Source: a bacterium (GTDB taxonomy: Bacteria; SZUA-182; DTGQ01). Taken from it: DNA of 39,730 nt. Location: assembly GCA_049472445.1 (NCBI GenBank), contig JBLIRT010000005.1, forward strand, positions 1 to 39,730. The letters are read 5' to 3'. Below the pieces are notes generated by a model, which made no database searches, was not told the DNA's origin, and worked only from the letters and a program-made list of their open reading frames with translations. Below, in pieces: positions 10,142-37,857 of this stretch. The stretch's first letter is position 1. Each line of letters begins with the position of its first letter. A program made the translations under genes and the position numbers.

Positions 10142-10599
10142 TTTAAAATCCTCCTTGCTTCTTTTTTTCATTTGAAAAATTCATTGACCCTCTCCTTGGT
10201 ATGCCTGTTGAGTATGAGGGCTTCATGTTTCAGGTATGAGGCATAGACACATCACCTCCTTTTCAGCTTGGAACCGTTGATAATCTTAAGAAGCTTAAGA
10301 ATAATAGAAATGATATGAAATATTACAATTATAATTATATAAAATTTTAATATGGTGTTTATCATCTTAGACGAATTGAACAAAAAGTAATTACGCAAAT
10401 ACAAGAAGGAAGAAGAAAATTTTTAAATCAATTTTATTTGAAATTTATTAGTAATATATAGTATAATAATAGTATATATATTTATTTAATATTTCATACT
10501 TCTATTTATTACTTATAATTTATTCCCGATTATTTTTACTCCTCCATGAAAAGTACTCATGGCTAAGATGAGAGATAACTATCTTACGTTATCCCTTTC

Positions 10600-20312: not shown

Positions 20313-20651
20313 CTAGGCTGAGACTGAAGCAGGGGAAGAGGACTTATCAGTCGGGGAAGAGGACTTATCGGCCTGAGATCCCTTGGCCTGAGATCCCTTG
20401 ACTTCCGATTCGCTCTTGGCTTCCGGTTTTTTGGTGTCACCTTTTTCGGCGGTTGTCCCCTTTTTCCTGTCTTTTGATGGATAATCTGTTACATACCATC
20501 CATCGCCTTTCAAAACGAAAGAGCACCGTGAGATGAGCCGCTCGACAGATCCGCCACACGTCGGACAGGAACTGAGCGGTGGATCGACGATACGCTGTTC
20601 CGATTCAAAAATAAGCCCACAATTCTTACACTCATATTCATAGGTTGGCAC
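20313..20651 (-). CDS. FmdB-family zinc ribbon protein with a low-complexity tail
   Basis: GTG 20651 after GAAGGAG; PTYEYECKNC...CPTCGG...FVLKGDGWYVTDY; tail contains short tandem duplications (KGSQA x2, DKSSSP x2). Confidence 0.88.
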   Translation of the reverse strand: MPTYEYECKNCGLIFESEQRIVDPPLSSCPTCGGSVERLISRCSFVLKGDGWYVTDYPSKDRKKGTTAEKGDTKKPEAKSESEVKGSQAKGSQADKSSSPTDKSSSPASVSA

Positions 20652-20740
20652 GTCTACTCTCCTTCTGCTGATTTCTCCAACAGCTAACTCCACGTGAGCA
20701 TAATCCCTTTGAAGTGTTATCATGCTCAATTTCAATTCCA

Positions 20741-21334
20741 TCACATACTGATAGATTCAATACTACAAAATTTAATGAAGCCGATGACTACACCGATGAT
20801 GTGTACCCGACTGGCCGGAAAATACCTTAATTTTTCAGTAACAGGATTATAAAATCCTGTTTTTCCGTCTTTTATCTGAAATCTTCGAAAGAGCCGCTTT
20901 CGTTCCAATTCCATGAAAACAATGTCTCCTGAGCTGCAGTCTCTTTCCGTATGAATGATGGCCAAATCTCCCTTTTCTACGCCATACGTCCGTAAACAGG
21001 AACTGGCAACCTGCACCGCATAACAGGATGTTTGATCATTTTTGAGAATCTGAAATCCGCCTTCCTCTTTCCTGTTACTCAACCTGGAGGGAAAGGAAAA
21101 TTCGAGTAAAAGCTTATGGGATGGGTGAGCCATGCTCAGGGAGCGGGCAAGCCCTCCCGACAGATGAATGTAGCCTTTCCTGGCCAAAGCCCTTAAATGA
21201 TCCCTGGCGGTGGCCGTTGATGTCCAGCCGAATTGCTGGCACAGCTCCCGGTAGGTTGGCGTGGGCATTCCTTCATCAATATTTTTGCGAAGGAATTCGA
21301 GCAGATGCTTCTGGATGAGTGTTAAATCCTTCAT
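20741..21334 (-). CDS. LexA-like repressor with a degenerate S24 peptidase domain
   Basis: LTLIQKHLLEFL...PTYRELCQQFGWTSTATARDHLRALARKGYI..GGLARSL winged HTH. The C-domain keeps GDL/GDIV/IIGVVIG but has no AG cleavage site and no GDSM. Confidence 0.8.
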   Translation of the reverse strand: MKDLTLIQKHLLEFLRKNIDEGMPTPTYRELCQQFGWTSTATARDHLRALARKGYIHLSGGLARSLSMAHPSHKLLLEFSFPSRLSNRKEEGGFQILKNDQTSCYAVQVASSCLRTYGVEKGDLAIIHTERDCSSGDIVFMELERKRLFRRFQIKDGKTGFYNPVTEKLRYFPASRVHIIGVVIGFIKFCSIESISM

Positions 21335-21342
21335 AGAGAGAT

Positions 21343-21372
21343 AAAATACCACTCATGAGAGTGGTATGTCAA
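21343..21372 (-). promoter_or_regulatory. sigma70 promoter with an embedded 9-bp inverted repeat (candidate operator)
   Basis: Minus strand TTGACA-18 nt-TATTTT with an extended TG; ATACCACTC-N4-GAGTGGTAT at 21346-21367. Confidence 0.65.
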
Positions 21373-21379
21373 GAAAAAA

Positions 21380-24217
21380 TTATTTGACAGCCTCTATGAA
21401 GCAGAATCCAAGGTTGCTGTCATTCTCTTCGGGAGGAGTCAGGTATCTTTTTGTACTCTCATAAGGAGTGGCATATACATAGTCGGAATATTCGCTTTCG
21501 GTGCCGTAGATGTTATAGGCTGTAACCTTCAGGACATAGGTGGTACCATTAACCAAGCCCTCAACCTTATAGAAGGTTTTATAACCGGCGTCTCTTCGCA
21601 CACTGGGATCCTGGCGGCTGGTTTCAATATCATTTTCCGTTCGGTAATAGACATAATAACCAACGACCTCCGGATCATCGGCGGGGTTCCAGGTAAGAAG
21701 GATACTTGCATTCTCAGCAGTGCCTATTAAGCGTGTCGGAATATCAGGGGCCTGACTGATGCCACGGTTTCCAAATATCTCTTTAATCCTGGCCTTATGT
21801 ATTCCCCCATACATTTCCTGATCCTGCATCAATACTGACACCAAAAAATCGGCAAGGGTTGTATCTCCATTATATCGAGCAAAATGAAAAAGAGTATCTG
21901 CAACTTCTGAGCCTAATTCTCTCCGAACATCCCACATGGCACCGGACAGGATTAAGCTGTTGGCATAGGGATCATCCCCGTAATCATCAGGGTATTTAAA
22001 AGAATTGTCCAAATTGCGTATATACGAATGTCCTATCCAAAGATCCCCATCGCCAATCAAAGGATCATCATTGAGAGTGGCAGCCCAATAATCTGAAAAA
22101 GCTTCATGAATAGCATCCAGTTCTGTTGTTATGATACGATTTTGCGTAGATGTATCACTATCATCGGTGGTTATATCTGTTGGGGAATTTCCTGACACCG
22201 GAATAAAGCCTGAAACCGGAATAAAATGGGAATAAAAGCTCTCGGTCAGGGCGTGAGTATATTCATGATAGATGATGTCTGAAAACAAAGCGAAGTTACG
22301 GTATCCATCCGCCTTGTTGTCTCCACCCCCCAAATAGATTCTATGGTCCGGAGACCAGTAGGCATTATTATAATCATCACCCCAATTGATGAAAACTTTT
22401 ATCGGCCCCTTTTGATCCATTGCTCCAAATTCAGGCTCAATACTTTCCATGTATTGAATCATCCGATTGATATGATAATAAGCATTCAATTCACCATAGC
22501 TGCCTGAGAGGTTGTCATTATTGGGATCCTGGGGATCAAGGGAATGATCGATAACATAATCTGAGGGAATATCTTCAAACACATAGAATGGATCGCGAGT
22601 ATTCTCATTGAAGACCTGGACATATTTACCGGCCAGCCTGGCTGTGACAGTGTTCTTTACCCATTCGGAAGAAAAGGTGAATTCCCCATTGGGATCAGTA
22701 TACGAAGAGACACTTTCCGCTATTTCCACATCATCGATGTTCCAGCCGCAGAAGACTCCGGAGCTGTCAGTTGGGCCCATACACCATCGTACATATATAA
22801 TCTGATTATCAGCATACCGGGAAATATCAAAGGTTTGCAGGTTCCATCCATACCAGGTACTATTCAGGCTGTTATAGACGCCATCATCAACCTGGTTCAT
22901 ACCATTGGACCAGAGAGTGGTCCAGATGATTCCATCGTAAGAGATATCTATTGAGGCACGATCAAAATAGCCATATCTATCCAACTCATCACCGCTGTAT
23001 TCTTTAGAGACACCCAACCAGCGCCAGAATCTCAAGACTAATCCGGATTTATTGAGGCAATTGATAGGATTAGTGGTCAGATATTTAGGTCTCATGAAAT
23101 CGGAATAATCGCCCGTTAGATTATAGCCGTAGACATTCAACCCTGTATGTCCTGAGCCTGGGTCAGGTGCCCCGGAGTGCCCCGGCGTATTGAGGTTCAT
23201 CAGGTTGGCAGGAGTCGGCTGGCCATACTGCCACAAGCCCTCCACCTGCCACCCTGGATCACTATCCAGGAATTCCTGATATACCGGCTCGCTTTTATTC
23301 AGTAAATACACTTTCTGGTTACTGAGGGTTACTCTCACTGGCGCATCGTTGTAGTATCGGGGCAGGATCATGCCTTGAATTCGACCGGATATAGCGGGGC
23401 GGGACCAATTATACCGGAAAAGCAGTTCTCCTGTCCGTGCATCCACAAGGTATCGCCACACATCCTTTTCAACTACCCAGGCCAGATGGTACTCCAAGTC
23501 GTCATCAACATAAAAGGGGAAAATTACCAGGCTGGTTGTATTATTCATGCCTTGAGAAGTCAGGTTCAAGTCCTGATTCACTACCCTTTGAGCTTCGGTC
23601 TCGTCAATGAGAGGAATCACTTCAAGAGAAATGTCCGGATAGGTATCCGCTCCGAAAGCCAGCAACTGGTACATCTCATCAAAGCGAAGCCCTATTCGAC
23701 TTCCATATACCGGGATATTTCGATATCTTTGTTGAAAATCCAGATACCAGATTCCTCCTCTTTTGTTGATTCTGGTAAGATAGATCTCAGAATCTCCGAG
23801 CCGAAAGAGCTCTTTATTTTCTTCGATGAACTGTTCAGCATAGTTCACCAACTCCTCCTGGCCCCATACCAAAGGCCGCCATAATCCTTCTAACGGAGAA
23901 AAGCTCTTTCGCACCACCCGATGAGGAACCTTGGTTGTTTTATTCCAGGTGGCCTGCCACTCAGAGCCATACCTCCTTAAAAATTCGTGCCAAGATTTAT
24001 CTTTTGCTTCTTCAGAAATCTTTCGAACAGCAGTGCGTTGCCTGATTTTTTTTCCTGTCAGATAGGTATCGTGCCGGACATTCTCATAGGACAAAAAAGC
24101 CAAGGCCTTACTTGTAAAAAAAGGTATGCTCTCTAAAATAACTACTGAAAGAAGTATTAAGATATTTAAAAAAGCTGCATTTTTACGTATATCAGATTGG
24201 CCATATATTCGTTTCAT
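21380..24217 (-). CDS. Secreted M4/M36-like zinc metallopeptidase: FTP/PepSY propeptide, inserted beta-sandwich domain, FN3 domain, CFI-box-type C-terminus
   Basis: FQQRYRNIPVYG, YLVDARTGELL, NNAYW, HEYTH, AIHEAFSD, FN3 (LTWNP..VGYYVYY...GLVNGTTY.LKVTAYN), ends LGFCFIEAVK. Confidence 0.85.
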   Translation of the reverse strand: MKRIYGQSDIRKNAAFLNILILLSVVILESIPFFTSKALAFLSYENVRHDTYLTGKKIRQRTAVRKISEEAKDKSWHEFLRRYGSEWQATWNKTTKVPHRVVRKSFSPLEGLWRPLVWGQEELVNYAEQFIEENKELFRLGDSEIYLTRINKRGGIWYLDFQQRYRNIPVYGSRIGLRFDEMYQLLAFGADTYPDISLEVIPLIDETEAQRVVNQDLNLTSQGMNNTTSLVIFPFYVDDDLEYHLAWVVEKDVWRYLVDARTGELLFRYNWSRPAISGRIQGMILPRYYNDAPVRVTLSNQKVYLLNKSEPVYQEFLDSDPGWQVEGLWQYGQPTPANLMNLNTPGHSGAPDPGSGHTGLNVYGYNLTGDYSDFMRPKYLTTNPINCLNKSGLVLRFWRWLGVSKEYSGDELDRYGYFDRASIDISYDGIIWTTLWSNGMNQVDDGVYNSLNSTWYGWNLQTFDISRYADNQIIYVRWCMGPTDSSGVFCGWNIDDVEIAESVSSYTDPNGEFTFSSEWVKNTVTARLAGKYVQVFNENTRDPFYVFEDIPSDYVIDHSLDPQDPNNDNLSGSYGELNAYYHINRMIQYMESIEPEFGAMDQKGPIKVFINWGDDYNNAYWSPDHRIYLGGGDNKADGYRNFALFSDIIYHEYTHALTESFYSHFIPVSGFIPVSGNSPTDITTDDSDTSTQNRIITTELDAIHEAFSDYWAATLNDDPLIGDGDLWIGHSYIRNLDNSFKYPDDYGDDPYANSLILSGAMWDVRRELGSEVADTLFHFARYNGDTTLADFLVSVLMQDQEMYGGIHKARIKEIFGNRGISQAPDIPTRLIGTAENASILLTWNPADDPEVVGYYVYYRTENDIETSRQDPSVRRDAGYKTFYKVEGLVNGTTYVLKVTAYNIYGTESEYSDYVYATPYESTKRYLTPPEENDSNLGFCFIEAVK

Positions 24218-24372
24218 AATGTACTCCCCCTTTTAATTTTCAGGATCTTGAGGATCTATCCATCCTGATAGCCCTTACCTGCATGAGCTTCCCCCGATAA
24301 AAATCTCTCATGTATGGAAATCCTGGTGGATAGAGTTATGTGTGGAGATTCGGCCTTCTCAGATTTGGATGA

Positions 24373-24390
24373 TAGCAAGTTAGATGCCAA
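24373..24390 (-). promoter_or_regulatory. sigma54 (-24/-12) promoter for the peptidase gene
   Basis: Minus strand TTGGCATCTAACTTGCTA, near-consensus TGGCA-N6-TTGC. Confidence 0.75.
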
Positions 24391-24492
24391 TGGTAAGTAA
24401 TAAAATACCCTGTGAGATCATAGGAATTGTGCTGATAATTGGTTGATATGTTACATCGGAGGTGTTCACAAAAGGTGGGCCTTGCACCACAT

Positions 24493-24511
24493 GTATTGCA
24501 GCCTTGAAACA
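24493..24511 (-). promoter_or_regulatory. Candidate enhancer (UAS), copy A
   Basis: Minus strand TGTTTCA-AGGC-TGCAATAC, about 105 bp upstream of the -24 GG; same motif at 28569. Confidence 0.65.
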
Positions 24512-24598
24512 TAGGGAATGAAGAGGATTATTGAGAAAAGAATGCAGAAGGGGAGACCATCGGCAGCATAGTGCTTTGGCGAAAGGATTGAATAAACG

Positions 24599-27451
24599 CT
24601 AGCCGGCCATTACCTCCAAATTCTCCGGTTTCGATATCTTATGCCTCTTCATCTTTCGCCACAGGGTTGTCCGGCTGATACTCAGTTTCATAGCTGCCCT
24701 GGAGATATTCCATTGACAATTCTCCAAGGTATCAAGCAGAGTTGATTTTTCAGTACCTGTCATTAATTCCTGCATGGAAGGGGTTTTTTCCATTTCAAAG
24801 ACAGGATCAAGGTTGGTTATTTCTGCCGGGAGATCCCTCACCTTAATTTCCAGATCACGGCAGCGGATGACTGCATATTCTATCGTATTTTCCAACTGGC
24901 GAACATTCCCGGGCCAGTCATATTCCCACAATATATTTAAGGCCTTCTGAGAGATACCTTTAATCTGTTTCCCGATTTTGGTATTCATCTTTTGAATAAA
25001 ATGCTCTGCCAGCAAAGGAATATCTTCTTTTCTCTCCCGTAAGGAGGGAACAGTGATCGGCACCACGTTCAGGCGGTAATACAAGTCCTCCCGGAACGTT
25101 CCCCTGGCTACAGCATCTTTCAAATCCTTATTGGTAGCTGCAATAATTCGAACATCGATCTTAATCCTTTCTCTGCCTCCCACTCTTACAATTTCCCGTT
25201 CCTGGACAACCCGAAGCAATTTGATTTGCTCATTCAGGTTGATATCCCCAATCTCATCGAGAAAAATGGTCCCCCCATTGGCCTGCTCAAAGCGGCCCGG
25301 TTTATCACTGATAGCGCCGGTAAAGGCTCCCTTGACATGTCCAAACAGTTCACTCTCCAGCAAGTGCTCAGACAGCACCGAGCACGTCACCTCAACAAAG
25401 GGATAATCACACCGGGGGCTGTGGTAGTGAATGGCCTGGGCGATCAATTCTTTTCCCGTTCCGCTTTCACCTTTCAACAGCACCGTACTGTTATTTTGAG
25501 AGACGGTATTGATCAGATCGTAGATTTCCAGCATCTTCATACCGTTGCCGATGATGTTGCCAAACTGGTATGTCTTTATCTTAGCTTCCGATCTTCTTTC
25601 CTGCCAATCCCGCAGTTGCTCCTCCAGCCTCTTTCTTTCGGAAATATCCCGGCCGATGCCCATGATTTGGGTTATTTCTCCCTTTTTCCCCAGGAATGGC
25701 GTCTCATTAATTTCCAGAAAAATCTTTTTGCCATCCCTGGTCAAAAATTCAGTCCAATAAGGCTCAAGAGGCTCCCCCCTGGTACATAGCCGAATAGGTG
25801 ATTCCATAAAGCTTTGGTTAATCGGGTTTGAACTGAGAATTTTTTCTTCAGGGAGACTCTTGAATTCCTCCGGCGAGTATCCAAGGATACGCTGAACCGC
25901 ATGGCTGACAAAGGTAATGGCACCCTGAGGGTTACGGATAAAAATCAAGTCATTGGTTGTATTGATCAGGGTATTTAATTTATCCCGCTCTTCCTTGATT
26001 TCTCGCTCTGCCTCTGTTTTTTCCCGAATGTCCCGGGCGATGCCGACAATTTCCAAAAGGTGCTGTTCTTCATCCAGCATGGGCCATCCTAAAAAGCTGA
26101 CAGGAATGGTTTCGCCGGATTTCGTGACCATGGCACAGGAATGATCATCGATTACTCCTCTTTGAGCGATAGTATCGAGATCTATCTCTTTCAAGGGGCA
26201 ATTCTTTTGAAAGAGACAATCAAATGGCTTGCCTATCAATTCATCTCTCTCATACCCTAATATCTTCAAGGTAGCCTGGTTGACAAAGGTGATTCTTTGC
26301 TCGGGCGAAATAATGATCAGAAGGTCGTGGATGGTGTTAATAATGGAGTGAAAATAATTTTTGGAAATCAAGGTACGCTGTAGATTTTCATTCATGGCAT
26401 TGAAAGCCTTCGATAGGGTTATGAGCTCCTTGTGGGAGTCTATTTCCTCTCTGGTGGTCAAATCTCCTGCCGACACACGATGAGTGGCTTGAATTAATTG
26501 CTCAATGGGGCTGGTTATTCCCTTACTGATGAGGAAGCCGAGGAAGAGAAGTAACGTTCCTCCTATGATGCCGGCCCACAGCAGTTTCAGAATAATTTTT
26601 CTGAGGCTTTTCTTTTTATCCTGCAGGCTTGAGGCAAGCATGAGAGTTCCCACGGTTTGTCCCCGGATGTCTTGAAAAGGAAAAGAAAGCGCATGATACT
26701 GGGTGTCGTAGATATAAATCTGCTCGAAGGCCTGTGGTGATTTTTTCCTGGCCTGAAGAATGCTTTCCTGGATTTCCGGCGGAATGGAGAGTGACTCGCC
26801 TGCTTTGGTGGGAATAGTACTGAAAATAGCCTTGACACCTTTAAAAATCAAAACATCCAGGCCGGTCAGCCGGTGTATTTTTCTAAAAAAATCATCACCG
26901 AGAAAACGGATGGCGGATACATATCCCATGATTACACCCGGAGAATGATAAACAGGAGAGATTATTTTCAAGATAAAACCCTGACCTGTATTGCCAAATC
27001 CGAAAATATCCCCGGTAATTTCCCCTTTTCCAATCAGGCCCTGGAATTCACGTATCTCTTCTGCCCTTTGATTGAGCGGGGAATTCTGCTGAGCCACTAA
27101 TTTTCCCCTCTCATCAAAGAGGGCGATGAGATCAAGGTCGAGATCATGTTGCCACCTGGACAGATGAGCAGAAAATTCCTTCCGGTCTTCCCTCATATTC
27201 TGCAAGATATCCGGAAAAATGGCACTGGACATACAACGTAACATCTGTTTCAGATGGTGTATCTCGTCAGGCAGAAGCTCTTTCTCCAGGAATTGTATTT
27301 GGGCCGCTATTCTCTTATTTATGGCCTTATCAAGTTCCTGGTCAACTATTTTTGTTTCCATACCCATATGAGTCAGAAAGAGAGTAAGAAATACCAGGAG
27401 AAAGGGGATTAAAATGCCTTTCAATATGGTATTCGGCTTCTTTTTATCCAT
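24599..27451 (-). CDS. Membrane-anchored one-component sigma54 activator (TM, extracytoplasmic Cache-like sensor, TM, HAMP, PAS, PAS, AAA+, Fis-type HTH)
   Basis: Two TM helices, HAMP (ITSPIEQL...GDL...EL..LSKAFNAM), two PAS domains ending RDI, GESGTGKE, ESELFGHVKGAFTGA, FLDEIG, FREDLYYRL, WPGNVRQL, HTH ISRTTLWRKM. No receiver or kinase domain. Confidence 0.94.
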   Translation of the reverse strand: MDKKKPNTILKGILIPFLLVFLTLFLTHMGMETKIVDQELDKAINKRIAAQIQFLEKELLPDEIHHLKQMLRCMSSAIFPDILQNMREDRKEFSAHLSRWQHDLDLDLIALFDERGKLVAQQNSPLNQRAEEIREFQGLIGKGEITGDIFGFGNTGQGFILKIISPVYHSPGVIMGYVSAIRFLGDDFFRKIHRLTGLDVLIFKGVKAIFSTIPTKAGESLSIPPEIQESILQARKKSPQAFEQIYIYDTQYHALSFPFQDIRGQTVGTLMLASSLQDKKKSLRKIILKLLWAGIIGGTLLLFLGFLISKGITSPIEQLIQATHRVSAGDLTTREEIDSHKELITLSKAFNAMNENLQRTLISKNYFHSIINTIHDLLIIISPEQRITFVNQATLKILGYERDELIGKPFDCLFQKNCPLKEIDLDTIAQRGVIDDHSCAMVTKSGETIPVSFLGWPMLDEEQHLLEIVGIARDIREKTEAEREIKEERDKLNTLINTTNDLIFIRNPQGAITFVSHAVQRILGYSPEEFKSLPEEKILSSNPINQSFMESPIRLCTRGEPLEPYWTEFLTRDGKKIFLEINETPFLGKKGEITQIMGIGRDISERKRLEEQLRDWQERRSEAKIKTYQFGNIIGNGMKMLEIYDLINTVSQNNSTVLLKGESGTGKELIAQAIHYHSPRCDYPFVEVTCSVLSEHLLESELFGHVKGAFTGAISDKPGRFEQANGGTIFLDEIGDINLNEQIKLLRVVQEREIVRVGGRERIKIDVRIIAATNKDLKDAVARGTFREDLYYRLNVVPITVPSLRERKEDIPLLAEHFIQKMNTKIGKQIKGISQKALNILWEYDWPGNVRQLENTIEYAVIRCRDLEIKVRDLPAEITNLDPVFEMEKTPSMQELMTGTEKSTLLDTLENCQWNISRAAMKLSISRTTLWRKMKRHKISKPENLEVMAG

Positions 27452-28440
27452 TATACCTCTTCAATTCCTGCCTTTTCATTCAAAACTGAAACCTGACTAC
27501 CCTCTGCACCTTTCGAGGACAGAATGCCTACCCCTGAAAAACAGAGGAGAAAGGTAGCCATCGTGCCAAAGGTCCCTCCAAGGATTTTGGCCAGCTTTTG
27601 ATTCTTGATACCAGGAAGATGATAGTCCGGGATTGGCGCATGATAGGGGGCTATAATCTGAGGTGAGTTTACCTGAACACGGTTTAGGGCAAACTTTTTC
27701 AATCCGTCAGCAGATCTGGAAGCACAGGGTGAAATAACCAGACTAATCAGCAAGGCCATACTGAGCAGGACATAGGCTGTCTTCCGGGATGATCTTAATG
27801 AGTCCTGGCCTTGATAATGAGGGCCTCTTGGAGCCAGGAGCCGGAAACAACCCAGAAGAAAAACGGTCAGAATCCCTTCGGCAATTCCAACTTCTACATG
27901 AGGGCCCAGCATAGGGCTGATAGTGCCTGAAAATTTTTCAATTTCACAGATGGCTAACATTCCGCAGACTGTCAAGCTGGTAATTAACAGGGTGAGCCAG
28001 GCTGAAAGAAACGCACTCAGGTAGCTGCCATACGGCTCAATGACCAGGTTTTTCAGCAGTGAGTAAAGATAGTATCCTCCGAAGGTACTGACGCAAACAA
28101 TAGTCAGCAAATTGGGTCCGAAGGCCATGATCCCACCATCTTGAAAAATAAGGACCTGGATAATGTGGGCAAGTGTCATGACTATGGTGGCCAGGTAAGG
28201 GCCAAGGACAAGAGAGGCAAAAACACCTCCCATAAAGTGACAGGAAGAGCCGCGAGTTACTTCAAAATTAGCCATTTCCAGGGCAAAACAAAAGGCTCCT
28301 ATAGAGCCGGCTAATAAGACCTCATGGGTGGTATCTACCTTTTTCCAGATTTTCTTCAGGCTGTAAGCCAGAACTCCCCCACAGGCCAGATCCATAACCA
28401 GACAAAGGCCGTTACTATAGAATCCATCCGGAGCATGCAT
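27451..28440 (-). CDS. CbiM/NikM-like ECF S-component fused to a PDGLE-like domain
   Basis: ATG 28440 gives MHAPDGF; SCHFMGG, QVLIFQDGGIMAFGPN, HVEVGIAEGILT; ASRSADGLK...APIPDY (PDGLE-like). The stop overlaps the activator start (TAATG). Confidence 0.85.
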   Translation of the reverse strand: MHAPDGFYSNGLCLVMDLACGGVLAYSLKKIWKKVDTTHEVLLAGSIGAFCFALEMANFEVTRGSSCHFMGGVFASLVLGPYLATIVMTLAHIIQVLIFQDGGIMAFGPNLLTIVCVSTFGGYYLYSLLKNLVIEPYGSYLSAFLSAWLTLLITSLTVCGMLAICEIEKFSGTISPMLGPHVEVGIAEGILTVFLLGCFRLLAPRGPHYQGQDSLRSSRKTAYVLLSMALLISLVISPCASRSADGLKKFALNRVQVNSPQIIAPYHAPIPDYHLPGIKNQKLAKILGGTFGTMATFLLCFSGVGILSSKGAEGSQVSVLNEKAGIEEV

Positions 28441-28568
28441 TATTGGTGTGGCCCTCTCTTTCCTGAAATGAAAAGGTGTGTTGCACAGGAGGCTCATTTA
28501 TTTTATTCGGCAGGAACATGCTTTTTCATAAGGAAATCCTTTCAATTTTTACCTCTTGATCGTTTCTT

Positions 28569-28587
28569 TGTTTCAGAGATGCAATAC
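28569..28587 (+). promoter_or_regulatory. Candidate enhancer (UAS), copy B
   Basis: TGTTTCA-GAGA-TGCAATAC, about 111 bp upstream of the -24 GG; further TGAAAC half-sites at 28608-28620. Confidence 0.65.
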
Positions 28588-28695
28588 CTCGAACATATCC
28601 TTTTGAAACATGAAACCAGGTACATTGGTTATGGCTTTTTGGGAATACCTTACCTTTTTTGATTACCCTGTGTGCCGGGCACCCAGGTCATCCTT

Positions 28696-28712
28696 ATGGT
28701 ATAAATCTTGCT
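28696..28712 (+). promoter_or_regulatory. sigma54 (-24/-12) promoter for the cytochrome c/Rieske cluster
   Basis: ATGGTATAAATCTTGCT has TGG-N10-GC with TTGC. Confidence 0.7.
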
Positions 28713-28864
28713 CTTTTTTCGGCCCGATTATTCTGCTTTCAAATCATGGGGGATAATAACTATGCGACGATGTAATAAGAGGGGGGAAAATTATCTTTAC
28801 TGAAATAGCATCTTATTTTAAAAAAAGATTCATTATCTGATAGGCCTGAAAGGAGTGAGCTTGC

Positions 28865-29251
28865 ATGCGGTCTAAGGGGGGTATAGGAATAGCCATGTTT
28901 GTTCTGGGATTTTTGACGGCTGTAACGATGCCATATGGAGTCGCACGGAATGCGTACGCCCAAGGTAATAAGAAAAAAGATGTGTTGCAACTGGCTGAGG
29001 CCGGCAAGGTTTTACTCAGGGAAGGAAATTGCCTCATGTGCCACTCCTTGAATGGGGAGGGCGGGAACTCTGGAAAGGCTACAGATATAAGCGGCCTGGG
29101 TATACGCTATGAGCGGTCCGATTTGCGGGAATTGTTAATTAAGCATCTTTTTAAAAAGCCTGACATCAAAAGGTATGAGGGAGTATTTACTGAAGAAGAC
29201 ATTGAGGCACTGACTCAATATCTTTCCACCGTAAAAAATCCCGGCTTCTAA
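28865..29251 (+). CDS. Exported monoheme c-type cytochrome
   Basis: AAGGAG RBS; signal peptide; GKVLLREGNCLMCH; C-terminal TEEDIEALTQYL helix. Confidence 0.88.
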   Translation: MRSKGGIGIAMFVLGFLTAVTMPYGVARNAYAQGNKKKDVLQLAEAGKVLLREGNCLMCHSLNGEGGNSGKATDISGLGIRYERSDLRELLIKHLFKKPDIKRYEGVFTEEDIEALTQYLSTVKNPGF

Positions 29252-29345
29252 AAATGGTAGCCTCACTTTGGTAAAGTTATTATAACAGATAAGAAAAGCT
29301 GAAAAGGTTCTTCACTTAAGTCAAGGTACGTTGGAGCGTAATATC

Positions 29346-29816
29346 ATGGAGCTTATCGTTGTGGAATCGAATAAGACGCTGAAATCTTCTCTGGCAGCTA
29401 TGACTCGCCGGATTTTCCTGAACATTCTTTCGAAAGGAATCTGGGGAGGTATCATGGTGTATCTCCTTTATCCCATCGTCCATTTTCTCATCCCCCCTAA
29501 AGAATCTTCCCGCGACCTGGATATTGTTCAACTGAATGCGACCGAAGTTGAGGTTGGAAAAGCCAAAATCATCAGCTATCAAGATACTCCAACCATAGTT
29601 ATTAATACGAGCCAGGGAGTTCTTGCTCTTTCGGCTGTGTGTACTCATCTGGGATGTATTGTTCAATGGGATGAGAGCAAGCAGGAGATCGTTTGTCCCT
29701 GCCATGGTGCAAAGTATGACCTTAATGGAAATGTGATAACAGGCCCTGCACCGAAACCGCTAGCTATGGTCAAGGCCAGAATGATAGATGATAAAATTTA
29801 TATCGGAGAGGCTTGA
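29346..29816 (+). CDS. Rieske [2Fe-2S] protein (bc/b6f type) with a Tat-like anchor
   Basis: TRRIFL plus a TM helix; CTHLGC, CPCHG and GPAPKPL. Start uncertain (29331, 29346 or 29400). Confidence 0.92.
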   Translation: MELIVVESNKTLKSSLAAMTRRIFLNILSKGIWGGIMVYLLYPIVHFLIPPKESSRDLDIVQLNATEVEVGKAKIISYQDTPTIVINTSQGVLALSAVCTHLGCIVQWDESKQEIVCPCHGAKYDLNGNVITGPAPKPLAMVKARMIDDKIYIGEA

Positions 29817-29899
29817 TCCCACCAAAATCAGAATTTATGTTATTCGCTCTTTATTCTCACTCATTGGCTGAAGCTGAATATGGTATATGTGGAGGAACT

Positions 29900-31570
29900 A
29901 TGCGCAGCGACTTTTCACGTGGATGGTACGAAACGGTTATTCTTGCCTTGGGGGCTATTCTTACCGCTTTCTTATTTGCTTTTGGATGCGGCGGCAGTTC
30001 ATCATCTGATGATAGCCGAATCATTTCTGAATTTTCTGAAAAATCGAACCTTCCGACTGGTATTACCATTTCAGGAACATTAGGCTCTCTATTTTATGTC
30101 AAGTCTCTGTTTAAAGGGTCGGGCAACCCAGGGCCGGATGGTACGGCAGGGCCGCCCGCTAATGCTCCCGGCCCAGGCAGTATGGAAGATACATCAGGAG
30201 ATGAGGACGTATCCACGGAAACCGAATCCTCAGAGACCGATGTGGCCACAGGAAGCAGCCCTCCGGATGGCATGCCAGGCCCTCCGGCTGGCACCTCAGG
30301 CCCTTCGGATGGAACTGCCGGTCCCCCGGACGGCACCCCAGGACCTCCGGACGAAACTGCCGGCCCTCCGAATAATACGACAGGGACAGGTACCGGCCCC
30401 GGTTCAGGAAGTGGTACAGGGAGAGGCGGCAGAACCGCAGGTATCAGTATCAGTCAATATCCCCTGGCCATGGTTTTGGAGGGGACTACCTTATACGGTG
30501 TTCCTGATCTGATGGGATCTTTTAAGATTCAAACATGCCCTGCCGGAGATTATACCCTGGTTTTATATAGCTATGGAGAGGTAATAGCCAAAAAATACAT
30601 CCGCATATCTGCCAAGTACGATCTTACGTTGGGTGAAATAACAGATGTTGACGAGGATGGATTTCTGATCTGTAATGGCTTTGATGGGTATCGTTTCCCC
30701 TGGAAAGATGATGATGGGGATGGGGTTAACGATAATTTCACCGATGCTGACGGGGATGGAATAAATGATCTGACCGGCCAGGCTTATACACACGGATGTG
30801 GCTGGCAGGATGCTGACGGGGATGGGATCAATGATCATCTTATCGATGCTGATGGTGATGGAATCAATGATATTACCGGCCGTAGCTATGGTTTTACCTT
30901 TGGTTTCATTGATCAGAATGATGATGGATTACATGATCTTTTTCAGGATAATAATGGAGATGGAATTAATGATCTTCATGGAGTGGCTTATGCCCATGGA
31001 TTCGGCTGGCAGGATGCTGATGATAATGGGATAAATGATAATTTTACTGATGCTGATGGCGATGGAGCCAACGATCTGACCGGCCGACCGGTTATTTATG
31101 GATATCGGTTTGGATTTGTCGATTCAAATGGAGATGGAATCAACGACAACTTTGCTGATGCTGATGGAGACGGAATCTGTGATCAGGGAACGCCCTGCCA
31201 GGGAATGCCTTACGCCCATGGATTCGGCTGGCAGGATGCTGATGATAACGGAATCAACGATAATTTCACCGATGCTGACGGGGATGGAGTCAGAGATCTG
31301 ACCGGCCTGGGCTATACATATGGAAGAGATCGATACAGCTTTCATGACCAGGATGGAGACGGGCAAAATGATTCTTTCATGGACAGGAACGGTGACGGCA
31401 TCAATGATAAGTTTGCCGATGCCAACGGTGATGGTATCAATGATCTGGAAGAGGGGGATTCCTTCCGTCATGGCTTTGGCTGGCAGGATGAGAATAGAGA
31501 TGGAATCAATGATAATTTTACCGATACTGATGGCGATGGTATCAACGATCTTACAGGAATTCCTTATTGA
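29900..31570 (+). CDS. Lipoprotein with a Pro/Gly-rich linker and many DxDGDG Ca-binding-type repeats
   Basis: GGAGGA RBS before ATG 29900; lipobox FAFG-C; DGTAGPP repeats; repeated HGFGWQDADDNGINDNFTDADGDG units. Confidence 0.82.
   Translation: MRSDFSRGWYETVILALGAILTAFLFAFGCGGSSSSDDSRIISEFSEKSNLPTGITISGTLGSLFYVKSLFKGSGNPGPDGTAGPPANAPGPGSMEDTSGDEDVSTETESSETDVATGSSPPDGMPGPPAGTSGPSDGTAGPPDGTPGPPDETAGPPNNTTGTGTGPGSGSGTGRGGRTAGISISQYPLAMVLEGTTLYGVPDLMGSFKIQTCPAGDYTLVLYSYGEVIAKKYIRISAKYDLTLGEITDVDEDGFLICNGFDGYRFPWKDDDGDGVNDNFTDADGDGINDLTGQAYTHGCGWQDADGDGINDHLIDADGDGINDITGRSYGFTFGFIDQNDDGLHDLFQDNNGDGINDLHGVAYAHGFGWQDADDNGINDNFTDADGDGANDLTGRPVIYGYRFGFVDSNGDGINDNFADADGDGICDQGTPCQGMPYAHGFGWQDADDNGINDNFTDADGDGVRDLTGLGYTYGRDRYSFHDQDGDGQNDSFMDRNGDGINDKFADANGDGINDLEEGDSFRHGFGWQDENRDGINDNFTDTDGDGINDLTGIPY
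30705..31560 (+). repeat. Intragenic tandem repeats encoding D-x-D-G-D-G-I-N-D units
   Basis: GCCCATGGATTCGGCTGGCAGGATGCTGATGATAA recurs at about 30992 and 31214; degenerate units of roughly 32-40 aa throughout. Confidence 0.8.
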
Positions 31571-31897: not shown

Positions 31898-33205
31898 ATG
31901 AATAGATACAGAGGAAAATTCATTACCTTACTTGGCCTTTTTTTGGTGATACTGATTATCTTTCAGGGGATTGGAAAAGCGGCCGGGCAAAGTGATGCGG
32001 AGAAAAAATCTAGCAGGAAAAGCCCAAAAAAGAAAAAAATCACCTGCATCACCTGTCATAATCACCTGGGTAAAGACAAAGCCGAATGGGTTAAACAGTG
32101 GCAGGAAAGTGTCCATGGGAAAAGCGATGTCTCGTGTCCGGACTGCCATGGGGGAAATCCTGCTTCCTTTAATAAGCCTAAAATCGAGGGAACAAATTTT
32201 AGAGGAAAGCCTTCACGTCTGGAAATTCCCGAATTTTGTGGTTCCTGCCATTCAGACCCCGCCCGGATGCGGCAGTTTCAAAAACGAATCGATCAGCTTG
32301 CCCAATATAAAACCAGCAGGCATGGGATAGGTTTGTTTCAGGCTAAGGATACGAAGGTAGCCGTATGTGTAGATTGCCATGGAAGACATGATATCGCCAA
32401 AGTCAGTGAATCTTCCTCTCCGGCTCATCATGGGAACATTGCCGAAACCTGCGGTGGATGCCACGCCAACAGCGATTACATGTCGCCCTATGGCCTTCCC
32501 ACAGATCAACTTACCTGCTACTATAAGAGTTACCACGGGATGATTATGAAAAATAAGATAGAAGGCAAAAATCCATCCCTGGTGCCCTCCTGCCCGGATT
32601 GTCACAGTCCTCATGGGCCTAAACCACCTGAAGTGTCTGAAGTGTCCAACATTTGTGGAAATTGTCATATGAATACGGCCAAATATTTTCATGAGGGAGA
32701 ACATAAAATCGCCCTGGAAGAACAAAACACTCCCAGATGCATTGATTGCCATGATAATCACGAGATAATTTTTCCCACCACCGAACTTTTTACGGGAGAA
32801 TCAGAGCATCATTGCGGCTTTTGCCATGCGACCACCTCGGAAGCTTATCAAAGGGGGCTTCGAATGAAAAAGGCACTGGAAAAGGCGGAGCAGGAAATAC
32901 ATGAAATAGAAAAAATAACTCACCAGCTTCAAAAAAAGCCTGGATATGACCCAAGGGACTTCGAAGAAAACATCCAGAAAGCCAAGCAAAGTATGGTACA
33001 GGCCATTCCGATAACTCACGTATTAAAAGAGGAAGAGGTAGCCCAATATACGGATGAAGCCCTTGCTTTCACACAAGATATCAGACACATGATTGATAGG
33101 GTAGGTGAGGAGTTAAGGAAGAGAAAAAAGTACCTTATGGCCAGTCTGGTAATTATTCTCATGATCATTTGCTTTTTATGGTATAAGCGGTCACGCATTG
33201 CCTAA
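31898..33205 (+). CDS. Multiheme cytochrome c (9 CxxCH) with a coiled coil and a C-terminal membrane anchor
   Basis: CITCH, CPDCH, CGSCH, CVDCH, CGGCH, CPDCH, CGNCH, CIDCH, CGFCH; N-terminal signal; C-terminal TM followed by YKRSR. Confidence 0.92.
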   Translation: MNRYRGKFITLLGLFLVILIIFQGIGKAAGQSDAEKKSSRKSPKKKKITCITCHNHLGKDKAEWVKQWQESVHGKSDVSCPDCHGGNPASFNKPKIEGTNFRGKPSRLEIPEFCGSCHSDPARMRQFQKRIDQLAQYKTSRHGIGLFQAKDTKVAVCVDCHGRHDIAKVSESSSPAHHGNIAETCGGCHANSDYMSPYGLPTDQLTCYYKSYHGMIMKNKIEGKNPSLVPSCPDCHSPHGPKPPEVSEVSNICGNCHMNTAKYFHEGEHKIALEEQNTPRCIDCHDNHEIIFPTTELFTGESEHHCGFCHATTSEAYQRGLRMKKALEKAEQEIHEIEKITHQLQKKPGYDPRDFEENIQKAKQSMVQAIPITHVLKEEEVAQYTDEALAFTQDIRHMIDRVGEELRKRKKYLMASLVIILMIICFLWYKRSRIA

Positions 33206-34459: not shown

Positions 34460-34581
34460 ATGGGTAAAGGCAGTCCAGCCATGGAGAAGAGGCCTCTCGG
34501 GGCTATGATTCAGGATTATTCCGGAATAAGAACGTTTTTATGAACCTGTAACCAGTAACTATAACTATGGGGAGATACTTT

Positions 34582-35394
34582 ATGAAAAAGGGAAAAATGA
34601 TCTCGGTTCTTTGCGTTCTATGCTTGTTTGCTTTCGTGATGGCGGGCTCTGTTTCCGCACACTTTGGAGTGGTCAAACCGTCAGATGATATTATTACCCA
34701 GGAAGATAGTAAGACCATTCAGGTCGAGGTTAAATTCATTCATCCTCATGAAGGACATTACATGGAAATGGCCAAACCGCAGCAGTTCGGGGTCATGGCC
34801 GGCGGCCAGAAGATTGATCTGCTCAATACCTTAACGGCTCAAAAAGGAAAATGGCAGGATCAGGAACAGGAGTTTACCTACTGGAGAGCCGATTATAAGA
34901 TTAAAAGGCCTGGTGATTATACCTTTTACGTAGTGCCGACTCCATATTGGGAACCGGCCGAAGATTGTTTTATTGTTCACTATACCAAGGCCTGCGTGCA
35001 GGCGCTGGGTTTGGAAGAGGGATGGGATGAGCCTCTTGGACTGAAAACAGAGATTGTTCCTCTAACCAGACCCTATGGATTATGGGTGGGAAATATCTTT
35101 ACCGGTGTGGTGCTCGTAGATGGGAAGCCGGTTCCTGATTCAGAAGTGGAAATTGAATATCTCAATGAAGATGCTGAAAACGGCAGCTTACTCAAAGCCC
35201 CCTCAGACCCTTATATCACTCAGATTGTGAAAACAGATCGAAACGGTGTATTTTCCTATGCCATGCCAAAGGCTGGATGGTGGGGATTTGCTGCCCTGAA
35301 TGAGGACTCAAAAACCATAAAGGGACCTGACGGTAAAGAGAAACCAATAGAAATTGGAGCAGTCTATTGGGTAAAAGCTGCAGCCGTCAAGTAA
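34582..35394 (+). CDS. DUF4198-family periplasmic component of a Ni/Co transporter (NikK-like)
   Basis: Signal peptide ending VSA-H; [40 protein letters not shown]. Confidence 0.88.
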
Positions 35395-35450
35395 TATTGC
35401 TTATTGAACAGGAGTGGCTTCCGGACGGCCATTCCGCACATCCGGATAAT

Positions 35451-35478
35451 CCTCCCTTGCCTCTTTCGGCAAGGGAGG
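35451..35478 (+). other. Intercistronic GC-rich hairpin
   Basis: CCTCCCTTGCC-tctttc-GGCAAGGGAGG perfect 11-bp stem with no U-tract. Confidence 0.6.
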
Positions 35479-35524
35479 TGAAGACTTTATGGAGAAATGA
35501 ACAGACAGAAAGAGGGGATTTTCA

Positions 35525-36178
35525 ATGGAGAGATTCTGTTACAGGCAGGGTAAGGTGCTGATCTTCCTCCTTACCTCTCTTTTCATGGTGCTGGCGGTTA
35601 TTTCAGACTCATATGCCCACAAGGTAAATATCTTTGCCTATGTTGAGGGTGATCTGGTTTATACGGAGAGCTACTTTCCGGATGGCCGAAAGGTTGAGGG
35701 AGGGACCGTAGAAGTTTATGACAGCATGGGAACAAAACTTCTCTCCGGTACTACTGATCAGGATGGCCGATTCAACTTCCGTCCCCCCGGGAAAGATGAT
35801 CTGAAGATTGTCCTGATAGCGAGTATGGGTCACCAAAATAGCTACACCCTCTCATCTGATGAATTAGCTGGGATTTCAGAAGGGAAAACCCATGATACAT
35901 CGGATAAAGGTGAATTGACGGGGAAGATGAGCGATGATCACAGCATCCCGGAAAATAAGCCGGTGGACGAGGCGGTCACATCCTCTCAGCCGATCAATCT
36001 TAGAGAGATCAGGAAAATTATTGATCAGTCTCTGGATCAAAAATTACAGCCGGTAGTAAGAGAATTGGCCAAGTCCCGGCATCAGGAAAGGATATCAGCT
36101 ACAGAAATCTTTGGTGGCATAGGTTATATTTTTGGTCTTATCGGCATGGCCCTGTATTTTTCAAAAAGGACTTCCTAA
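35525..36178 (+). CDS. NikL/CbiL-like accessory membrane protein
   Basis: Signal ending SYA-HKVNIFAYVEG; C-terminal IFGGIGYIFGL TM; located between DUF4198 and cbiM. Confidence 0.78.
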   Translation: MERFCYRQGKVLIFLLTSLFMVLAVISDSYAHKVNIFAYVEGDLVYTESYFPDGRKVEGGTVEVYDSMGTKLLSGTTDQDGRFNFRPPGKDDLKIVLIASMGHQNSYTLSSDELAGISEGKTHDTSDKGELTGKMSDDHSIPENKPVDEAVTSSQPINLREIRKIIDQSLDQKLQPVVRELAKSRHQERISATEIFGGIGYIFGLIGMALYFSKRTS

Positions 36179-36217
36179 TCACAGAGTACTTGAGCGTTTT
36201 CTCAAAAAGGAGTCTAC

Positions 36218-36832
36218 ATGCATATTTCTGATGGAGTGTTGCCTAATACGATCTGTATCGGCGGATATCTTCTGGCCATGGGGGTAAGTGCCGTATGCAT
36301 TAAGAAGTGCATGGAACCGAAAGAACTTCCCAAAATAGCAGTTATGACCTCTGTCTTCTTTGTAGCTTCCCTGATCAGCGTTCCGCTCGGCCCCACCAGT
36401 GTTCATCTTATCCTGCCGGGCCTGGTGGGAGTTACCCTGGGCGCCATGGCCTTTCCATCAGTTATGTTAGGTCTGGTCTTACAATCCATTCTCTTTCAGC
36501 ATGGCGGATTGACTGCCATCGGGGCCAATACCCTGATGATGGGCATACCGGCTATCATGAGCGGCCTCTTATTCCGGCAGGTCAGGAATTCAGACAATCG
36601 AAGCTTTATAATAAGTACCGGTTCTTTCTGCGGTGCCCTGGGGACCTTGCTGGCCGGTATCATACTGGCCCTTCTTTTATTCACCTCCGGTGAGGATTTC
36701 CTTGGAGTGGCCAAGGTGGCTCTGGCAGCTCACGTACCGGTCATCATCATTGAAGCTGTTATAACCGGTGTGGTGGTATCCTTTCTTCTGAAGGTGAAGC
36801 CAGACCTTATAGGAGCACGGAGAAGACCATGA
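36218..36832 (+). CDS. cbiM: Ni/Co ECF transporter S-component CbiM/NikM
   Basis: N-terminal MHISDGVL metal-binding motif, TSVHL, LQSILFQHGGLTAIGAN, HVPVIIIEAVITG. Confidence 0.92.
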   Translation: MHISDGVLPNTICIGGYLLAMGVSAVCIKKCMEPKELPKIAVMTSVFFVASLISVPLGPTSVHLILPGLVGVTLGAMAFPSVMLGLVLQSILFQHGGLTAIGANTLMMGIPAIMSGLLFRQVRNSDNRSFIISTGSFCGALGTLLAGIILALLLFTSGEDFLGVAKVALAAHVPVIIIEAVITGVVVSFLLKVKPDLIGARRRP

Positions 36833-37035
36833 TTGCCCTTTTTTCTTTTCTTTTTTCGATCCTTGGATTCCCCGGAGGGCTTAACGTAGTCTATGCTCTG
36901 GCCAGTGGAGATGAGGCACTCATAGTTCATCGTATTGAGCTGCCGACCTATTTTCTCCTCTTTATTATTCTCGGATTGATGGCCATTGCCTGGGGAGTTT
37001 TGAAAATTTTCCGCCATGTGGACCATGACCGTTAA
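36829..37035 (+). CDS. Small membrane protein coupled to cbiM
   Basis: ATGA overlap with the cbiM stop; two hydrophobic segments; ends RHVDHDR. Confidence 0.55.
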   Translation: MIALFSFLFSILGFPGGLNVVYALASGDEALIVHRIELPTYFLLFIILGLMAIAWGVLKIFRHVDHDR

Positions 37036-37067
37036 AAATCCATGATCCCGAAGACAGGGGCATTTTT

Positions 37068-37844
37068 ATGAAGCCTGACATAGACCGCTACTGGAAGCTT
37101 GAGTCTCCCATTCACGTCTGGGATCCGCGCTTTAAGATTTTTTCTCTGATCTTCCTGGCCTTTACCATCTCATCCGTCCAGCGGATTTCTACAGCTCTGG
37201 CCTGCCTTGTTCTTTCCCTTCTGCTCCTGCAATTGACCAGGATTCCCTTCTCCTTTTCGTTGAAACGATTAGCTGCGGTGACCATGTTTGTCGGCCCCTT
37301 TTTTGTTATTATGCCGCTGACTACCAGGGTTCAGCCCGGTGACACCATTTATTTCTTTACTCACCTGCGGTTTCTTGAGATCAATACCCGAGGGCTGCTT
37401 CTAGCCGGCCAGGTGTATATAAAAGCTGTCGCTATTGTCTTACTGGTGGTTCCCATGTTCGGTACGAATCGTTTCGATATCTCCATAAAGGCCATGGAGA
37501 GGCTCAAGGTTCCGAATAGCGTGATCCAGATGATATTATTTTCGTACAGATACATCTTTGTCTTCCTGGCCGAATTAAAACGGATGTCACTGGCTATGAG
37601 GATTCGGAAATTTACACCGTCGACAGATCTTCACACCCTGAAAACCTATGGCAATTTTTTAGGCACCCTGCTGGTGAGGAGCTTTGAAAGAACCGAGGAG
37701 GTTTATCAGGCCATGTTGAGCCGAGGCTATAGAGGTGTTCTGAAGATCCATTTCGATTATCAGACCGGGGCTAAAGATCTGGTGAAAAGTACTTTGATCT
37801 TTGCGGCTATTTCCGGTATTATCTATTTTGATCGATTCTTTTAA
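37068..37844 (+). CDS. cbiQ: ECF transmembrane T component CbiQ/NikQ
   Basis: SPIHVWDPRFK, YRYIFVF, LLVRSFER, AMLSRGY. Confidence 0.92.
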   Translation: MKPDIDRYWKLESPIHVWDPRFKIFSLIFLAFTISSVQRISTALACLVLSLLLLQLTRIPFSFSLKRLAAVTMFVGPFFVIMPLTTRVQPGDTIYFFTHLRFLEINTRGLLLAGQVYIKAVAIVLLVVPMFGTNRFDISIKAMERLKVPNSVIQMILFSYRYIFVFLAELKRMSLAMRIRKFTPSTDLHTLKTYGNFLGTLLVRSFERTEEVYQAMLSRGYRGVLKIHFDYQTGAKDLVKSTLIFAAISGIIYFDRFF

Positions 37845-37857
37845 GGGAGCCTTATTC

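Follow-up and report, generated by a model that had tools for sequence, protein, structure and literature searches.

The stretch of DNA analysed here (the window) comprises positions 1 to 39,730 of contig JBLIRT010000005.1 (assembly GCA_049472445.1), from a bacterium of the GTDB lineage SZUA-182; DTGQ01. Our subject is a two-gene operon that encodes a CbiM-like membrane protein and a membrane-anchored sigma-54 activator (one of the bacterial enhancer-binding proteins, or bEBPs) and that lies between two predicted sigma-54 promoters facing outward, each of them preceded by one copy of the motif TGTTTCA-N4-TGCAATAC. As argued below, this motif is probably a functional enhancer, or upstream activating sequence (UAS), of the activator subfamily at both promoters. 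The initial annotation had described the operon between the promoters as that of the activator; the activator is indeed enclosed, together with the CbiM-like gene, which belongs to the same operon. The features of the region are as follows:

24374..24389, minus strand (read from 24389 to 24374): predicted left sigma-54 -24/-12 promoter, TGGCATCTAACTTGCT; GG-N10-GC, intergenic, score 6.5 of 6.5
24436..24448, minus strand: site resembling the integration host factor (IHF) consensus, TATCAACCAATTA, between the left UAS and the left promoter
24493..24511, minus strand: putative left enhancer (UAS) copy, TGTTTCAAGGCTGCAATAC; exact motif match
24599..27451, minus strand: sigma-54 activator, 950 aa; transmembrane segment (TM)-dCache_3-TM-HAMP-PAS-PAS-AAA+ (GAFTGA)-HTH_8, from Pfam
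27451..28440, minus strand: CbiM-like membrane protein with a PDGLE/CbiN-like C-terminal part; Pfam CbiM (E 3.3e-40) and PDGLE
28503..28512, plus strand: conserved 10-mer, TTATTCGGCA; between the right UAS and the CbiM-like gene
28569..28587, plus strand: putative right enhancer (UAS) copy, TGTTTCAGAGATGCAATAC; exact motif match
28604..28617, plus strand: two extra half-sites, TGAAACA and TGAAACC, 17 nt past the right UAS
28697..28712, plus strand: predicted right sigma-54 -24/-12 promoter, TGGTATAAATCTTGCT; GG-N10-GC, intergenic, score 6.0

Direct reading of the window agrees exactly with the initial annotation on two points: there are two outward -24/-12 elements, both of the form GG-N10-GC, intergenic and pointing at the next gene, and they share a motif in the same relative orientation about 105 and 111 bp from the GG. 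The two copies are identical at 15 of 15 specified bases, and in both of them the TGTTTCA half is the promoter-distal one. Counted from the promoter-proximal end of the motif, the GG begins 105 bp away on the left and 111 bp away on the right; counted from the UAS centres, the GG is 114.5 and 120.5 bp away. When up to two mismatches are allowed, the window holds 2 matches to the motif as compared with 0.09 expected, and none of 100 shuffles gave 2. In the whole assembly (hereafter G000; 2,849,299 bp in 209 contigs, 77% complete), the motif has 2 matches when at most one mismatch is allowed, 5 with at most two and 76 with at most three. The genome-wide scan that had been proposed as a check of the motif therefore shows that it is not common: the only two copies with at most one mismatch are those of the window, and both stand before a GG-N10-GC element. 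Global alignment of the two intergenic regions found no similarity outside the motif, and duplicated DNA as the origin of the two copies is ruled out, because the regions are unalike beyond it.

To grade the promoters, GG-N10-GC sites were scored against the consensus TGGCAC-N5-TTGCW, for which the maximum is 6.5. Sites scoring at least 6 number 56 in the genome and 5 in the reversed (uncomplemented) genome, and 50 of the 56 fall within the 16% of the genome that lies outside open reading frames of at least 100 aa. With scores of 6.5 (left) and 6.0 (right), the window promoters belong to an overwhelmingly non-random class of sites. The loose pattern TGG-N8-TTGC, by comparison, shows no enrichment in the window (6 observed, 6.58 expected). 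At a threshold of 5, G000 has 286 sigma-54-like sites, and dyad-promoter pairs occur 13 times in the upstream arrangement as compared with 4 in a mirrored downstream control. The gene for sigma-54 itself, rpoN, is present (a 499-aa open frame on contig C197 matches Sigma54_DBD with E 3.5e-61), and there are 22 Sigma54_activat matches, 20 of them strong. With at least 50 intergenic high-scoring sigma-54-like sites and about 20 activator genes, the sigma-54 regulon appears large for the size of this genome.

The Sigma54_activat domain of the activator (PF00158, E 2.6e-68) spans residues 633-799 and is followed by the lid domain; the Walker A sequence GESGTGKE and the GAFTGA loop are both intact, and an HTH_8 domain (PF02954) occupies residues 901-936. 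Hydrophobic segments near residues 6-32 and 285-313 would anchor it in the membrane, and its N-terminal 640 residues resemble the sensory portions found in histidine kinases and GGDEF proteins. No NCBIfam equivalog cut-off is reached, the best match being PrdR (395 bits against a cut-off of 795), and the protein is also under the cut-offs of the PrsR, NifA, NtrC and TyrR models. All 8 aligned family members have the same recognition-helix core, SRTTLWR, in the helix-turn-helix (HTH) domain, in keeping with a half-site shared by the family.

Full-length relatives of the sensor part (10 at E<1e-160) occur in 6 of the 20 genomes of the class that were searched; they are confined to the window's own taxonomic family, the next-best match having an E value of 2e-43, and one of them is a paralog in the same genome, on contig C204, with 59% identity. 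We mapped nine loci from genomes and five from metagenome contigs; L061 begins at the activator gene and was left out of the upstream assessment. The loci divide into two classes. Class I consists of the window, L022, L023, L060 and L063, has activators 67-69% identical and carries Rieske and Ca-repeat lipoprotein genes divergent from the CbiM-like gene and a gene for a large secreted protein downstream of the activator; in class II (52-59% identical), the divergent gene encodes a small secreted protein, famB, and an exosortase-like gene often lies downstream. Beside these activator modules, a palindrome, TGTTTCA-N4-TGAAACA, recurs as a family site, from which the window motif TGTTTCA-N4-TGCAATA differs at two positions of the right half, the same two in both copies. 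Of 13 loci of the activator subfamily, 12 have a divergent sigma-54-like promoter (score at least 5) preceded by the dyad (at most three mismatches); in the exception, L026, the dyad is present and no promoter is above the threshold. The related loci with this pairing, 12 in number, come from 5 genomes, 4 metagenome contigs and the paralog in G000. Downstream of the activator, an outward promoter is found in all five class I loci, with the dyad before it in four (not in L023), and, of the seven class II loci that could be assessed, in just one. Two outward-facing predicted promoters are thus a conserved trait of the orthologous group, and the right one has the form TGGTAT-N5-CTTGC(T/G) in all five members.

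Five related genomes contain 28 dyads with at most one mismatch and 3 matches to the reversed pattern, a roughly 9-fold excess, and a sigma-54-like site lies 40-220 bp downstream of 12 of the 28, as compared with about 0.5 of 28 estimated by chance from the density of such sites in G000. For 9 of those 12, the distance from the dyad centre to the GG is fixed at 70.5-73.5 bp, and the C204 module has a related site, TGTTTCAGATTTGAAATT, 71.5 bp before a sigma-54-like promoter. The proposal that the motif is the binding site of the enclosed activator is, then, supported by comparison, through the pairing of dyad and promoter in 12 of 13 loci.

Within otherwise diverged intergenic DNA, the right UAS aligns with CGTTTCAAAATTGGAACA in L022 and TGTTCCATAATTGAAACA in L023, and L060 and L063 have dyads at the same position. 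Its centre lies about 145 bp upstream of the predicted start (near 28723, plus strand), from which a 5' untranslated region of about 142 nt would lead to the first gene. The half-sites at 28604-28617 may form a second site for an activator dimer; a GTGAAC-N3-TGAAACC sequence stands at the matching place in L022, L060 and L063. No IHF consensus was found in the right region, where inspection by eye gave at best a version with two mismatches. On the CbiM side, all five class I loci carry the 10-mer TTATTCGGCA unchanged, at 56, 56, 56, 56 and 57 nt from the dyad, and it is absent from all seven class II regions examined; G000 has 13 copies as compared with about 5 expected. A sigma-70-like match (9 of 12 positions), running from 28529 to 28500 on the minus strand, overlaps the 10-mer region, and the 10-mer may belong to the CbiM-activator operon's core promoter. 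No sigma-54 promoter for this operon was found on the minus strand between 28441 and 28568; TTATTCGGCA followed by TGC was considered in this role and rejected, since it has a GG-to-GC spacing of 9 instead of 10 and does not occur in L023.

In contrast to the rigid spacing between the dyad and the 10-mer, which suggests that the same site also serves the operon's own promoter, the distance from the dyad to the TGGTAT promoter in the class I loci varies (110, 134, 135, 300 and 285 nt), as fits enhancer action via looping. The long distances are due to inserted tandem repeats. In L063 (3150-3430), short tandem repeats separate the dyad from the sigma-54 promoter, widening the spacing to about 285 bp; others are found in L023 (6560-6640), on the CbiM side of the conserved 10-mer. 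Repeat units in these two control regions include CTTTGTGCCTCTGTGCC and CTGACTCCTGA.

On the left, the UAS lies 88 bp beyond the activator stop codon, with its centre about 139 bp upstream of the predicted start (near 24363, minus strand; predicted 5' untranslated region about 146 nt). No terminator-like hairpin was found between the activator stop codon and the left promoter, and no clear second dyad is present in the left region, only a GTGAACA-like word. The IHF-like site at 24436-24448 is one of 3 matches to the consensus in the window, with 2.97 expected across the 39.7 kb; its position between UAS and promoter is suggestive, though it was noticed only post hoc. No Rfam family reached its gathering score anywhere in the window, so that no riboswitch accounts for the leaders of about 145 nt or for the CbiM leader.

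The genes that the two promoters would serve, and one further gene on the right, are the following:

21380..24217, minus strand: predicted left target gene, 945-aa secreted-type protein; M4 (thermolysin-like) catalytic domain, from Pfam
28865..29251, plus strand: monohaem cytochrome c, 128 aa, predicted first right target; Pfam Cytochrom_C
29331..29816, plus strand: Rieske 2Fe-2S protein with a PetC-like membrane anchor; from Pfam, below the NCBIfam cut-offs
29813..31570, plus strand: probable lipoprotein, 585 aa; no Pfam or NCBIfam family
31898..33205, plus strand: nine-haem c-type cytochrome; nine CXXCH, Pfam multihaem families, C-terminal hydrophobic tail

The left gene (ATG at 24217, with the ribosome-binding site GGGGGAG in front) encodes a protein with a hydrophobic N-terminus, HExxH at residue 651 and a C-terminal fn3 domain, so that the description of it in the initial annotation as a secreted protease is reasonable. 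The electron-transfer cluster proposed for the right side holds only in part: the 585-aa protein, which has a low-complexity Pro/Gly-rich linker, more than 20 acidic DxDxDG-type (Ca) repeats and no CXXCH haem motif, is probably a Ca-repeat lipoprotein. Its gene is conserved beside the Rieske gene, and the Rieske gene beside the module, in L022, L023, L060 and L063; neither the 128-aa cytochrome c (ATG at 28865, ribosome-binding site AAAGGAG) nor the nine-haem cytochrome was found in the orthologous loci. Membership of the nine-haem cytochrome gene, which is preceded by a 328-bp gap, in the right operon is uncertain. As to the local regulon that had been proposed, both promoters are kept in 5 of 5 orthologous loci and the targets are conserved only in part, namely the Rieske protein and the lipoprotein.

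Judged from sequence comparison, the arrangement very probably constitutes a regulatory circuit that is small, self-contained and, in general kind, already known. Several observations count against the motif being the activator's enhancer at both promoters or limit the weight of the evidence for it. G000 being 77% complete, "two copies" of the motif is a lower bound; the sigma-54 score is a simple consensus score and not a trained matrix; and the related loci are kin, so that counts across loci overstate their independence. There is one full dyad per promoter, with extra half-sites on the right only, and the two distances from UAS to -24 element differ by 6 bp, or half a helical turn. Nor is the left target conserved: BLAST matches the peptidase to none of the genes at this position in L022, L023 and L060, whose products are CarboxypepD_reg-domain proteins 53-62% identical among themselves. 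The dyad is fixed relative to the 10-mer (56-57 nt) and variable relative to the sigma-54 promoter, and its first role could be at the CbiM promoter. Finally, the C204 paralog has a recognition-helix core identical to that of the window activator, and the binder cannot be told from the sequence.

The last of these points raises the possibility that the enhancer is used mainly or also by the C204 activator, in a cross-regulated rather than a local circuit. The SRTTLWR core common to both paralogs and all eight aligned members would permit this, as would the related site, TGTTTCAGATTTGAAATT, that the C204 module has before its own promoter; however, the exact TGCAATAC variant occurs only beside the window activator, the two paralogs are not alike in the first HTH helix, and the dyads adjoin the activator gene in every locus, as local control predicts. 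We regard such cross-use as improbable. If, instead, the motif were the operator of a protein that does not act with sigma-54, or served only a sigma-70-type promoter of the CbiM-activator operon, its proximity to the sigma-54 elements would be incidental, and the constant 56 nt between the right copy and the 10-mer, set against 110-300 nt to the sigma-54 promoter among the orthologous loci, would be readily understood. The left copy does not fit this picture, since it has no 10-mer and is situated beyond the operon's downstream end, with a sigma-54 promoter 105 bp further on; nor do the nine dyads in relatives that stand 70.5-73.5 bp from sigma-54-like sites with no activator operon promoter nearby. 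We consider this explanation quite unlikely, less likely even than use by the C204 protein.

It might also be asked whether the two copies are the terminal inverted repeats, or a duplication remnant, of a 4.1-kb mobile cassette consisting of the CbiM-like and activator genes. They are mutually inverted, bracket exactly the two-gene operon and have arms of 22 nt that are 82% complementary. No transposase is encoded inside, though, and the flanking DNA is otherwise dissimilar; the four spacer bases differ between copies while the flanking bases are identical at 15 of 15 positions, which is the pattern of a protein-binding dyad; and the orthologous loci hold dyads at the same places beside the same neighbour genes. 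A mobile cassette is therefore extremely improbable, and the reading of the motif as the activator's enhancer is the one we carry forward. (An IS66-family transposase gene is present elsewhere in the window, at 5680-7005 on the plus strand.)

On that reading, the circuit could work as follows. By domain assignment, the activator combines a periplasmic dCache sensor and a HAMP domain with a pair of PAS domains, a GAFTGA-bearing AAA+ domain and an HTH of the Fis type. Its dimers would bind the dyad TGTTTCA-N4-TG(A/C)AA(C/T)A about 140 bp upstream of each promoter, as the conserved position of the dyad in related loci suggests. A signal passing through dCache, HAMP and PAS would then free the AAA+ domain to assemble into an ATPase ring, which would reach the sigma-54 holoenzyme at the -24/-12 element by DNA looping, contact it via GAFTGA and open the promoter; we infer ring assembly, looping and promoter opening from the known working of NtrC-family activators. 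The left loop may be helped by the IHF-like site. The leftward promoter would express the secreted M4-type peptidase and the rightward one the cytochrome c, the Rieske protein and the Ca-repeat lipoprotein, and the right UAS, given its fixed 56 nt to the 10-mer, may also act on the activator's own operon. The best, if speculative, candidate for a co-sensor is the CbiM-like protein.

The stop codon of the CbiM-like gene overlaps the ATG of the activator gene by one base, and a CbiM-like gene directly precedes the activator in 12 loci (the window, L022-L027, L029, L059, L060, L062 and L063); it is absent upstream of the activator in L028, and no match was found in L040 either. An N-terminus of the form M/V/L-HAPDG is found in 8 of 8 CbiM-like homologues compared, and the start is for this reason likely the ATG at 28440 (MHAPDGF) and not the upstream ATG at 28497. 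The sequence M-H-A-P-D-G resembles the N-terminus with which NikM/CbiM binds metal. For this protein, every NCBIfam CbiM equivalog falls far short of its cut-off (best 117 bits, against 401), and neither a CbiQ gene nor an ABC ATPase gene is present at the window locus or in the mapped related loci. A fold-based interaction test of the CbiM-like protein with residues 1-360 of the activator (both alignments) gave a score of 0.06 against a mark of 0.32, a result that counts neither for nor against contact between them. The CbiM-like protein might be an orphan paralog of the S-components of energy-coupling factor (ECF) transporters that keeps M-H-x-x-D-G and acts as the metal-sensing partner of the activator, the two forming a membrane-tethered module, undescribed before, that switches the flanking sigma-54 promoters for exported proteins; we consider this a doubtful though conceivable proposal. 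If it were true, the exported targets of the module in this lineage would be the protease and the set of Rieske protein, cytochrome and Ca-repeat lipoprotein, and those of the paralogous modules would be small secreted proteins and an exosortase-like system. A separate, canonical ECF-type cobalt/nickel uptake cluster lies about 6 kb from the orphan CbiM-like gene, at 34567-39443 on the plus strand; it encodes a DUF4198 protein, a small bMG3-like protein, a CbiM (204 aa), a CbiQ and two ABC ATPases, the part with CbiM, CbiQ and the two ATPases spanning 36218-39443.

Several of the promoters with the fixed dyad distance of 70.5-73.5 bp precede members of famA, a family of secreted proteins of about 190 aa with a conserved QNW(A/V)ALPPYNTLWPLWSP sequence and no Pfam family. 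In the mapped loci, members are found at L022:2822-3382, L023:3272-3835, L024:1534-2115, L025:290-868 and L026:4615-5271, and in L022-L025 a perfect or near-perfect dyad stands 79-80 bp before the famA TGGCAC promoter. G000 has ten tblastn matches to famA (contigs C172, C46, C114, C75, C79, C108, C131, C6, C158 and C64, one copy being at a contig edge), of which 1 has a sigma-54-like site within 400 bp upstream and none has a dyad visible by eye. With promoter and dyad so nearly absent, membership of the famA genes of G000 in the window regulon is not supported.

The famB proteins of class II share the motif LDAPEYV(R/H)C..(V/I)CEF(L/M)E and a C-terminal ..TSII(R/T)(S/C), and are encoded at L024:5399-5992, L025:3615-4232, L027:407-874, L028:538-996, L026:3901-4434, L059:2177-2644 and L062:2312-2932. 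In six class II loci, the divergent sigma-54 promoter has famB as its first gene; in L026, famB is situated within the divergent block. The exosortase-like gene (629-690 aa) follows the activator in L024, L025, L027, L059 and L062. Elsewhere in the window, a dyad-like site with 2 mismatches, TGTTTCAGGTATGAGGCA (10226-10243), is followed by an extremely A+T-rich segment of about 270 bp (10290-10560) and then by an alpha/beta-hydrolase gene; it was not counted as a member of the circuit because no sigma-54-like site is nearby. Directly downstream of the peptidase gene lie genes for a LexA-like repressor and a zinc-ribbon protein (20313-21352, minus strand).

If the motif is the enhancer of this activator subfamily, what is gained is a DNA site (TGTTTCA-N4-TGAAACA, with its TGCAATA variant) for an uncharacterised subfamily of activators, two defined target promoters and a regulon open to testing in an uncultured lineage, and an unusual input design in which a periplasmic dCache domain is fused directly to a sigma-54 ATPase and encoded behind a CbiM-like protein. 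This amounts to a well-supported annotation and a candidate new sensor pairing, and involves no new mechanism of transcription. The parts of the full-text literature available for searching yielded no description of TGTTTCA-N4-TGAAACA as a UAS (the only matches being unrelated eukaryotic ones), of a CbiM-like protein paired with a sigma-54 activator or of a membrane-anchored dCache sigma-54 activator.

Classical pairs of bEBP enhancers and sigma-54 promoters are those of NtrC at glnAp2, of NifA with its TGT-N10-ACA UAS and of XylR/DmpR. The window circuit resembles them in having a dyad about 70-150 bp upstream of GG-N10-GC, an activator with a GAFTGA-containing AAA+ domain and a C-terminal Fis-type HTH, an activator gene beside its predicted targets and a possible IHF-like site between enhancer and promoter. 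It differs from the NifA case in the dyad, which in the window family is TGT-N12-ACA, 18 bp long, and from the classical bEBPs in general, which are soluble response regulators or ligand-binding proteins, in that the activator is membrane-anchored with a periplasmic dCache domain. TyrR/PhhR boxes have the form TGTAAA-N6-TTTACA, and E. coli TyrR acts on sigma-70 promoters. These boxes are likewise 18-bp palindromes that begin and end in TGT...ACA, and the protein that binds them is of the NtrC family and has its HTH at the C-terminus, but their inner bases differ from those of the family dyad, and the window activator scores 252 bits with the NCBIfam TyrR model, for which the cut-off is 576.

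The PrsK-PrsR system of PEP-CTERM/exosortase regulators (NCBIfam TIGR02915) offers a parallel in the sigma-54 control of secreted and surface proteins and, through the exosortase-like gene, in the class II loci. The window activator, however, reaches 332 bits with the PrsR model against a cut-off of 503, has no receiver domain or partner kinase and would be a one-component membrane sensor; the window locus also has no exosortase gene. The companion protein shares with the CbiM/NikM S-components of ECF transporters the Pfam CbiM domain and the PDGLE/CbiN-like tail, but it is far under the equivalog cut-offs and lacks an adjacent CbiQ/CbiO, and its gene instead stands directly ahead of that of a transcription activator, a translational coupling that holds for 12 loci. 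The regulatory principle, an enhancer and a sigma-54 promoter beside the gene of the activator, is a textbook one, and the circuit is ordinary in kind; what is new is the enhancer sequence and the sensor architecture within the sigma-54 activator paradigm, and what is unusual is that the activator is anchored in the membrane and constantly accompanied by a CbiM-like protein.

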